This document shows positions 47,008 through 47,350 of a DNA stretch of 64,000 nucleotides, piece after piece (position 1 is the first letter of the stretch; each line of letters opens with the position of its first letter). Origin of the DNA: an uncultured Candidatus Saccharibacteria bacterium (lineage in GTDB: Bacteria; Patescibacteriota; Minisyncoccia; Phycocordibacterales; Zambryskibacteraceae). The notes beneath the pieces were generated by a model. The model saw only the letters and a program-made list of their open reading frames with translations, had not been told where the DNA came from and did not search any database. Where the stretch lies: positions 325,387-389,386 of the forward strand of contig CAZXQA010000001.1 in the NCBI GenBank assembly GCA_964642835.1. The letters run 5' to 3'. The translations under genes were made by a program, and so were the position numbers.

Positions 47008-47052
47008 GGGCTATAGAGTATCAATAAAGGCGAGCAAGGTCAAATACAGGCA

Positions 47053-47282
47053 AAGAAAAAGCGCCCTGTAAAGCAAGGCGCCGGAATGGTGTGGAGTTTG
47101 TCAGGGTTCTCATGTTTTACCCTCAAGCCGTTTCGGCCACCACGCTAGGTACAGGGTTGGCTCGAGCCAACTAATCTAACGGAGATGAGAGCCCCGCTGA
47201 CTCGAGAGGAATTTCACCTCTCTTAACTCGCGAGAGCGGCCGTGTAGCCAAACCGGGGAATCTCCCCGTCTCACGATCATTT
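47053..47282 (-). ncRNA. Candidate structured small RNA of about 230 nt, identity unknown, with its own promoter and terminator.
   Basis: A promoter TTGACA(47312-47317)-17-TAAGAT(47289-47294) on the minus strand. The transcript carries multiple hairpins, including the perfect ggttggctcgagccaacc, and ends with the terminator gcgcc-ttgctttaca-gggcgc-ttttt at 47053-47081. Confidence 0.35.
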
Positions 47283-47350
47283 GTAACCATCTTAGCATAC
47301 TCTGTAAAACTTGTCAAGCACTTTCTTGAGTATCAAAATTGAGCCTTATT

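Follow-up and report, generated by a model that had tools for sequence, protein, structure and literature searches.

A rare, unclassified structured non-coding RNA gene in the prfB-rpsP spacer of a Patescibacteria genome

In a stretch of 64,000 nucleotides from an uncultured Patescibacteria bacterium (hereafter the window), the spacer between prfB and rpsP holds a self-contained RNA gene of ~230 nt on the minus strand. It is a rare, unclassified structured non-coding RNA (ncRNA) that matches no described family in Rfam 15, and we consider it highly probable that it represents a new, real, stand-alone structured ncRNA family. Few bacterial genomes are smaller or less well understood than those of Patescibacteria (CPR), and to our knowledge almost nothing is known of their ncRNAs beyond rRNA, tRNA, RNase P, SRP RNA and tmRNA. 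An independent structured RNA of this size had been proposed in a first-pass annotation made from the letters of the window alone. The proposal is strengthened here by the traits that generally mark a stand-alone structured ncRNA: a promoter and a terminator of its own in all three lineages in which it was found, the lack of a conserved open reading frame (ORF), and compensatory changes.

Downstream of the prfB stop codon (47351), in minus-strand order, come a hairpin, the promoter of the RNA gene, the RNA itself, its terminator and finally the rpsP promoter. The RNA-gene promoter (47317-47289) consists of TTGACA (47317-47312), a 17-nt spacer and TAAGAT (47294-47289) with a TG extension upstream (extended -10). 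It is near-consensus (10 out of 12 matches) and agrees with the TTGACA/TAAGAT pair reported earlier on this strand; a promoter scan over 1.2 kb returned two promoter-like sites against 0.5 expected. L001 has the same promoter and an equivalent consensus promoter is present in L121, the two homologues described below. At the other end the gene is closed by an intrinsic terminator (47082-47050, minus strand), with a stem of nine pairs at 47082-47060 (six of them G-C) followed by TTTTTCTTT (also given as UUUUUCUUU), as the first-pass annotation had noted ahead of rpsP. An equivalent terminator is found in L001, and at the same position L121 carries a different, unrelated hairpin with a U-run. The transcript expected from these signals spans about 47282 to 47050 and measures roughly 230 nt. 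The hairpin that precedes the promoter (47359-47342, minus strand) is itself terminator-like and overlaps the prfB stop codon; its 3' half is part of the inserted segment, and it is missing in L081 and L082, both of which lack the RNA gene.

The RNA region includes ORFs of 48, 40 and 30 aa, which are stopped or frameshifted in L001 and L121 so that none is kept across the three lineages; the earlier statement that there is no ORF here holds in the sense of no credible ORF. Repeats of the element elsewhere in the window were not found. Both short hairpins named by the first reading (gagagg/cctctc and cgggg/ccccg) are present. The palindrome listed with them does exist in perfect form, but with a length of 16 nt (GTTGGCTCGAGCCAAC, 47156-47171), as the 18-mer originally given carries one mismatch.

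On the prfB side, the RF2 gene (47351-48232, minus strand) is a single ORF of ~292 aa with an SPF motif and no programmed +1 frameshift site. Its mechanically called ORF runs on upstream across a tRNA-Thr gene (48250-48322), and the listed TTG start is for this reason spurious. Further along, at 49681-49752 (minus strand), ARAGORN calls a tRNA-Met (CAT) that is absent from the matches of the Rfam tRNA model at gathering score; either the tRNA is divergent or the call is false.

Two diverged homologues of the RNA were found, one at the same site (L001) and one in another context (L121, metagenome contig Ga0070741_10148958), and all three lineages are Patescibacteria. L001 is a species-representative MAG contig in which the element occupies the same place, is ~68% identical (nhmmer E=1e-26) and has the same promoter and terminator. 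Contigs L110-L113, which derive from SRR14271366, SRR14271373, ERZ27309394 and ERZ27309396, represent the window's own species and show two differing positions, both outside the core. L121 was obtained by scanning JGI metagenomes with a pattern of conserved loops and junctions, which gave 11 stretches including one true homologue. It scores E=1e-6 with nhmmer, E=2e-9 with covariance model R1 and E=2e-11 with model R2, the covariance-model value that is also reached by L001. Given that its ABC ATPase has its best matches in entries named Paceibacterota or Patescibacteria, L121 can be assigned to a Patescibacterium.

On L121 the RNA is convergent with an RNase P RNA gene, and no co-directional gene lies 3' of it. 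The only promoter on the RNA strand is situated ~200 nt further upstream (11 out of 12 matches plus TG), so that the L121 transcript is probably ~430 nt long with an extra 5' domain. This domain of ~200 nt (1926-2135, minus strand), between that promoter and the conserved core, folds strongly and has no similarity to any other sequence analysed. As a separate observation, the RNase P RNA gene on L121 (1204-1625, plus strand) is a divergent bacterial type-A form that scores 73.5 bits (E=2e-21), below the gathering score of 100, and standard Rfam annotation would miss it. Another small RNA gene could be present on L125, where a TTGACA...TATTCT promoter and an intrinsic terminator delimit an unannotated unit of ~90 nt (6080-6190, minus strand). 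Immediately downstream of this unit is a tRNA-Ala-like gene (5925-5998, minus strand) to which Rfam gives a weak tmRNA label (25.6 bits).

The relatives of RpsP all come from Patescibacteria/CPR MAGs, which carry the labels Paceibacteria, Zambryskibacteria, Nomurabacteria or "Saccharibacteria". In their neighbourhoods, searched in 80 species genomes and in Logan, ENA and JGI contigs, the RNA occurs only in L001 and in same-species contigs. No copy is seen in the neighbourhoods of relatives of the L121 ABC ATPase, model R2 finds no further member over 573 kb of Patescibacteria loci, and nhmmer profiles together with models R1 and R2 add none over all collected loci.

For the region 47045-47290 the folding energy is -93.2 kcal/mol (z = -3.3), a value reached by 0 of 200 shuffled sequences; the corresponding z-scores are -4.9 for L001 and -3.8 for L121. 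In the minimum free energy (MFE) folds, the 5' domain (47276-47228, minus strand, as for all elements that follow) is formed by P1 (UCGUGAG/CUCGCGA) around the hairpins P1a (47268-47254) and P1b (47250-47237). This domain is shared by the window and L001 only and draws its support from that one pair, including a compensatory change in P1a (CGGGG/CCCCG against CAGGG/CCCUG, read from the alignment). L121 has in its place a simple UACG-capped hairpin and a longer 5' extension.

The elements common to the three lineages start with P2 (47222-47204), a hairpin of 5-6 bp with a conserved 7-nt loop of T-loop type (UGAAAUU at 47216-47210, UGRAAUU across lineages), which we take to fit the T-loop pattern U-G-N-R-A. 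P3 (47197-47179) has 4-6 bp and a 7-9-nt loop across the lineages. It is followed by a variable hairpin (47171-47156), in the window the 16-nt perfect palindrome GUUGGCUCGAGCCAAC, where L001 and L121 have unrelated hairpins instead. The most conserved block is a 3' three-way junction (47143-47086) made up of P5, P5a (47137-47127), UUG, P5b (47123-47103) and GACAAA, with both junction strands, UUG and GACAAA, conserved. P5b reads AGGRU/AYCCU across lineages and has an 11-12-nt loop. P5 has two competing 4-bp registers, the second of which (GUGG/CCAC) also fits one compensatory change read from the sequences.

A predicted pseudoknot of 6 bp connects the P3 loop (47190-47185, UCUCAU) with the 3' part of the P5b loop (47113-47108, AUGAGA). 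In the window the two strands read UCUCAU/AUGAGA, in L001 GCUCACAA/UUGUGAGC; L121 breaks two of the six positions, with the alternative pairing UCGCAA/UUGCGA available. For covariation the three sequences were fitted by hand, and variable inserts were cut out so that the cores align gap-free. Standard pairs fill 96.6% of the cells of this alignment; sliding the 3' partners by 1-3 columns lowers the figure to 34-49%. Double (compensatory) changes are found in 13 of 29 pairs, a count that is statistically weak given a hand-curated core and three distinct sequences; they are distributed over P2 (4/6), P3 (3/4, its inner pairs), the pseudoknot (2/6), P5 (1/4), P5a (2/4) and P5b (1/5). As several G-U pairs fix the strand, the minus strand is the functional one. 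Overall, compensatory changes support the fold and suggest that both the helices and the pseudoknot are maintained. Conservation and covariation had been put forward by the first-pass annotation as a check on its RNA, and it is the homologues L001 and L121 that supply them.

These features also bear on a first alternative, a base-pairing regulatory sRNA in which the folds only stabilise the molecule and target mRNAs are bound by a short single-stranded seed. Stand-alone genes that have a strong promoter and end in an intrinsic terminator are typical of sRNAs, many of which are likewise strain-variable. However, conservation is concentrated in the T-loop, the junctions and the loop-loop pseudoknot instead of one accessible seed, sRNAs of the seed type do not typically reach 230-430 nt or contain several covarying helices, and no target complementarity was identified. 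We therefore judge this alternative improbable.

The distribution of the gene between relatives is informative as well. Relative to L081, L082 and L003 it forms a clean indel of ~300-320 bp, the prfB-rpsP spacer being 343 nt in the window against 40 nt in L081. In L081, L082, L002, L003, L006 and L105 the spacer measures 38-48 nt and the prfB stop codon leads straight into the rpsP promoter. L001, which has the RNA, shares 98.7% identity in rpsP and 93% in the 3' part of prfB with L081, which lacks it; no RNA copy is present within the 6.3 kb of the L081 contig examined. Given this near-identity, presence of the RNA varies at about species level. Absence is the common state, as seen in 79 of 80 sampled rpsP neighbourhoods, and the RNA gene is dispensable at the prfB-rpsP locus. 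Next to the ABC transporter, the relatives of L121 retain rnpB but have no copy of the RNA nearby.

Unrelated small ORFan genes recur in the prfB-rpsP spacer of related Patescibacteria, making it a hotspot for such genes. In 15 of the 25 loci where prfB immediately precedes rpsP the spacer is 12-48 nt long, and others hold ORFan genes of 206 aa (L009, 2106-3001), 152 aa (L013, 2251-3001), 163 aa (L007, 2360-3001), 106 aa (L103, 2349-2796) and 89 aa (L102, 311-696). At least the gene in L103 comes with a promoter, a Shine-Dalgarno sequence and a terminator of its own, and the encoded proteins have no Pfam or PADLOC match. The RNA appears to be part of this pool of strain-variable cargo.

It might be argued that such a pattern points to an orphan or decaying ncRNA of a mobile or RNA-guided element (omega-RNA, bridge-RNA or retron-like) with a protein partner that is encoded elsewhere or lost, as the distribution is patchy even between near-identical genomes, the spacer collects unrelated cargo and the same core recurs in the distant context of L121. 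Nonetheless, neither inverted repeats nor a target-site duplication are seen at the indel boundaries, no transposase, RT or nuclease gene is nearby in the three contexts, and Rfam gives no match to HEARO or related models. Pattern scans of IMG/VR returned nothing, or chance matches in a phage repressor gene, and BLAST against phage and plasmid collections returned nothing similar. With promoter, terminator and core intact in all copies, we do not think that this origin is likely.

A further alternative, close to the riboregulator suggested in the first-pass annotation, is a leader (of riboswitch or ribosomal-protein type) that acts in cis on read-through into rpsP-KH-trmD. It has in its favour that the RNA lies directly upstream of rpsP on the same strand, ends in a terminator, has aptamer-like complexity and, in L121, has a P2 hairpin with the same sequence as that of the FMN aptamer. 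The rpsP gene, however, has its own signals (47043-47005, minus strand): TTGACC (47043-47038), 17 nt, TACTCT (47020-47015), and 7 nt further the ATG (47007). This is an extended -10 promoter (TTGACC, 17 nt, TGATACTCT) in which TGA precedes TACTCT, and no Shine-Dalgarno sequence is found before the ATG, so the leaderless promoter described earlier for rpsP reads exactly as given. The gene is apparently leaderless and the arrangement is kept across relatives. Promoter and start codon, situated between the terminator and rpsP, are conserved in L081, L082 and L003, all without the RNA, and rpsP expression is therefore independent of the RNA gene. Since L081, with its near-identical rpsP, runs the same operon without the RNA, a riboregulator role is unlikely. 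Moreover, the L121 copy is followed by the convergent rnpB in place of a co-directional gene, and no alternative anti-terminator pairing with the terminator arm is evident by eye.

The leader explanation receives little help from known riboswitch models either. An FMN riboswitch (RF00050) is matched in L121 with only 12.6 bits against a gathering cutoff of 66.2 (E ~1-3), with just the P2 hairpin aligning well, and the model has no match at E<=10 in the window or L001. The match arises because the L121 P2 hairpin equals the FMN P2 consensus. FMN riboswitches are located in the 5' UTR of genes for riboflavin synthesis or transport, and the neighbours here are prfB and rpsP (window and L001) or the convergent rnpB (L121). 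A T-box leader, recognised by Stem I with a specifier loop and a T-box antiterminator upstream of an aminoacyl-tRNA-related gene, was rejected as well: the three copies have no Rfam T-box match at E<=10 and the downstream gene has its own promoter. Taken together, we regard cis-acting control as very unlikely.

Searches with Rfam 15 at gathering thresholds over the whole 64 kb yielded only eight tRNAs, and the same result was obtained at E<=0.05. For the three RNA copies at E<=10, only terminator-driven noise and the single FMN match in L121 were returned, so the Rfam search that the first-pass annotation had proposed for this region gives no credible family match. Its author had failed to assign the RNA to SRP RNA, tmRNA, RNase P RNA or the T-box, and Rfam 15 and (for tmRNA) ARAGORN are negative in the same way. 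For tmRNA, with its tag frame and a tRNA-like domain made of T-arm, acceptor stem and CCA end, ARAGORN finds nothing in window positions 46000-50500, L001 or L121, and there is no Rfam tmRNA match. RNase P RNA of bacterial type A or B would be recognised by a covariance-model match including the P4 pseudoknot strands GAGGAAAGUCC and ACAGAAnnCGGCUUA; the window RNA has no match at E<=10, and the RNA cannot be RNase P RNA because L121 carries a separate RNase P RNA gene beside its copy. For bacterial SRP RNA, small or large (helix 8 with a GNAR tetraloop, conserved symmetric and asymmetric loops, and an Rfam SRP match), the three copies have no match at E<=10 and no conserved loop equals a GGAA-type helix 8 apex. 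The first-pass annotation had also considered a 6S-like RNA and suggested folding it in search of a large central bubble. Both the MFE and the covariation-supported folds are multi-branched with a pseudoknot rather than a rod with such a bubble, and there is no Rfam 6S match.

That a highly diverged housekeeping RNA (6S, SRP RNA, tmRNA or RNase P RNA) has been missed by standard models is hardly credible: RNAs of Patescibacteria can diverge, as the L121 rnpB below its Rfam cutoff illustrates, but here even E<=10 gives no match, ARAGORN is negative, rnpB is present separately in L121, the branched fold with pseudoknot is not the 6S rod, and the RNA is missing at the site in a near-identical genome and in nearly all sampled rpsP neighbourhoods.

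On balance we lean towards an accessory stand-alone ncRNA of an undescribed, rare Patescibacteria family that acts in trans via its fold. A strong sigma-70-type promoter would transcribe the ~230-nt RNA, and its own terminator would stop transcription before the leaderless rpsP promoter. The core would combine the T-loop-type hairpin, a second hairpin base-paired through its loop to a loop of the 3' three-way junction, and the junctions UUG and GACAAA, with variable peripheral hairpins decorating it. The RNA would constitute accessory cargo in a spacer where relatives have nothing or unrelated small ORFan genes. Action in trans would proceed through the three-dimensional fold, by binding of a protein or small ligand or, conceivably, by catalysis. 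We infer this from the conservation of T-loop, junctions and loop-loop contact in place of an accessible seed, a pattern that resembles that of protein-binding, ligand-binding or catalytic RNAs. Long antisense pairing or cis regulation of rpsP is unlikely. The fold-dependent trans mechanism specifically, which derives from the architecture only, seems to us plausible though somewhat short of probable.

A bolder reading is that this RNA is the first known example of a new complex-folded class, which could be a small ribozyme, a ligand sensor acting in trans or an RNA that sequesters protein. Streamlined Patescibacteria genomes would carry it as strain-variable cargo, with a possible link to the episymbiotic or phage-exposed life of these bacteria, and its tertiary architecture would lie outside Rfam. 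The novel architecture would then be the combination of T-loop hairpin, long-range kissing-loop pseudoknot and three-way junction. We offer this reading tentatively and consider it rather doubtful.

For the preferred reading of an accessory RNA acting in trans, the interest lies in the combination of properties. In its architecture the covarying fold, which includes a T-loop and a long-range pseudoknot, shows the hallmarks of ligand-binding, protein-binding or catalytic RNAs, yet the same RNA, with its strong promoter, is dispensable between near-identical genomes. A function, if found, would add a new RNA class and might show what kind of cargo is exchanged at the prfB-rpsP spacer. With three lineages the family is very small, and we therefore consider it a solid candidate and not a breakthrough.

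Compared to known systems, the RNA resembles 6S RNA in its similar size and in being an independent, probably abundant small RNA gene. It differs in that 6S RNA is a long irregular hairpin with a central bubble whereas the present RNA is branched with a kissing-loop pseudoknot, and in being dispensable between near-identical genomes. With the FMN aptamer (RFN element, RF00050) it has in common the consensus P2 hairpin, which is the P2 hairpin of L121 (AGGGUGAAAUUCCCU); FMN aptamers also use T-loop and loop-loop contacts. Unlike that aptamer it lacks the six-helix junction, the second GGUGnnAUUCC hairpin and a downstream riboflavin gene, and it has its own promoter and terminator. The FMN likeness is a shared structural module, not family membership. 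A further comparison is with the orphan complex-folded bacterial ncRNAs that comparative genomics has revealed (raiA motif, OLE, ROOL/GOLLD and HEARO-type RNAs). Rfam 15 matches the present RNA to none of these, in sequence or in structure. It is smaller than OLE, ROOL and GOLLD, and it is very rare (three lineages) and strain-variable. Nevertheless, like these it is a stand-alone, multi-helix orphan ncRNA with a pseudoknot, conserved junction nucleotides, no obvious regulated gene and a narrow phylogenetic range.
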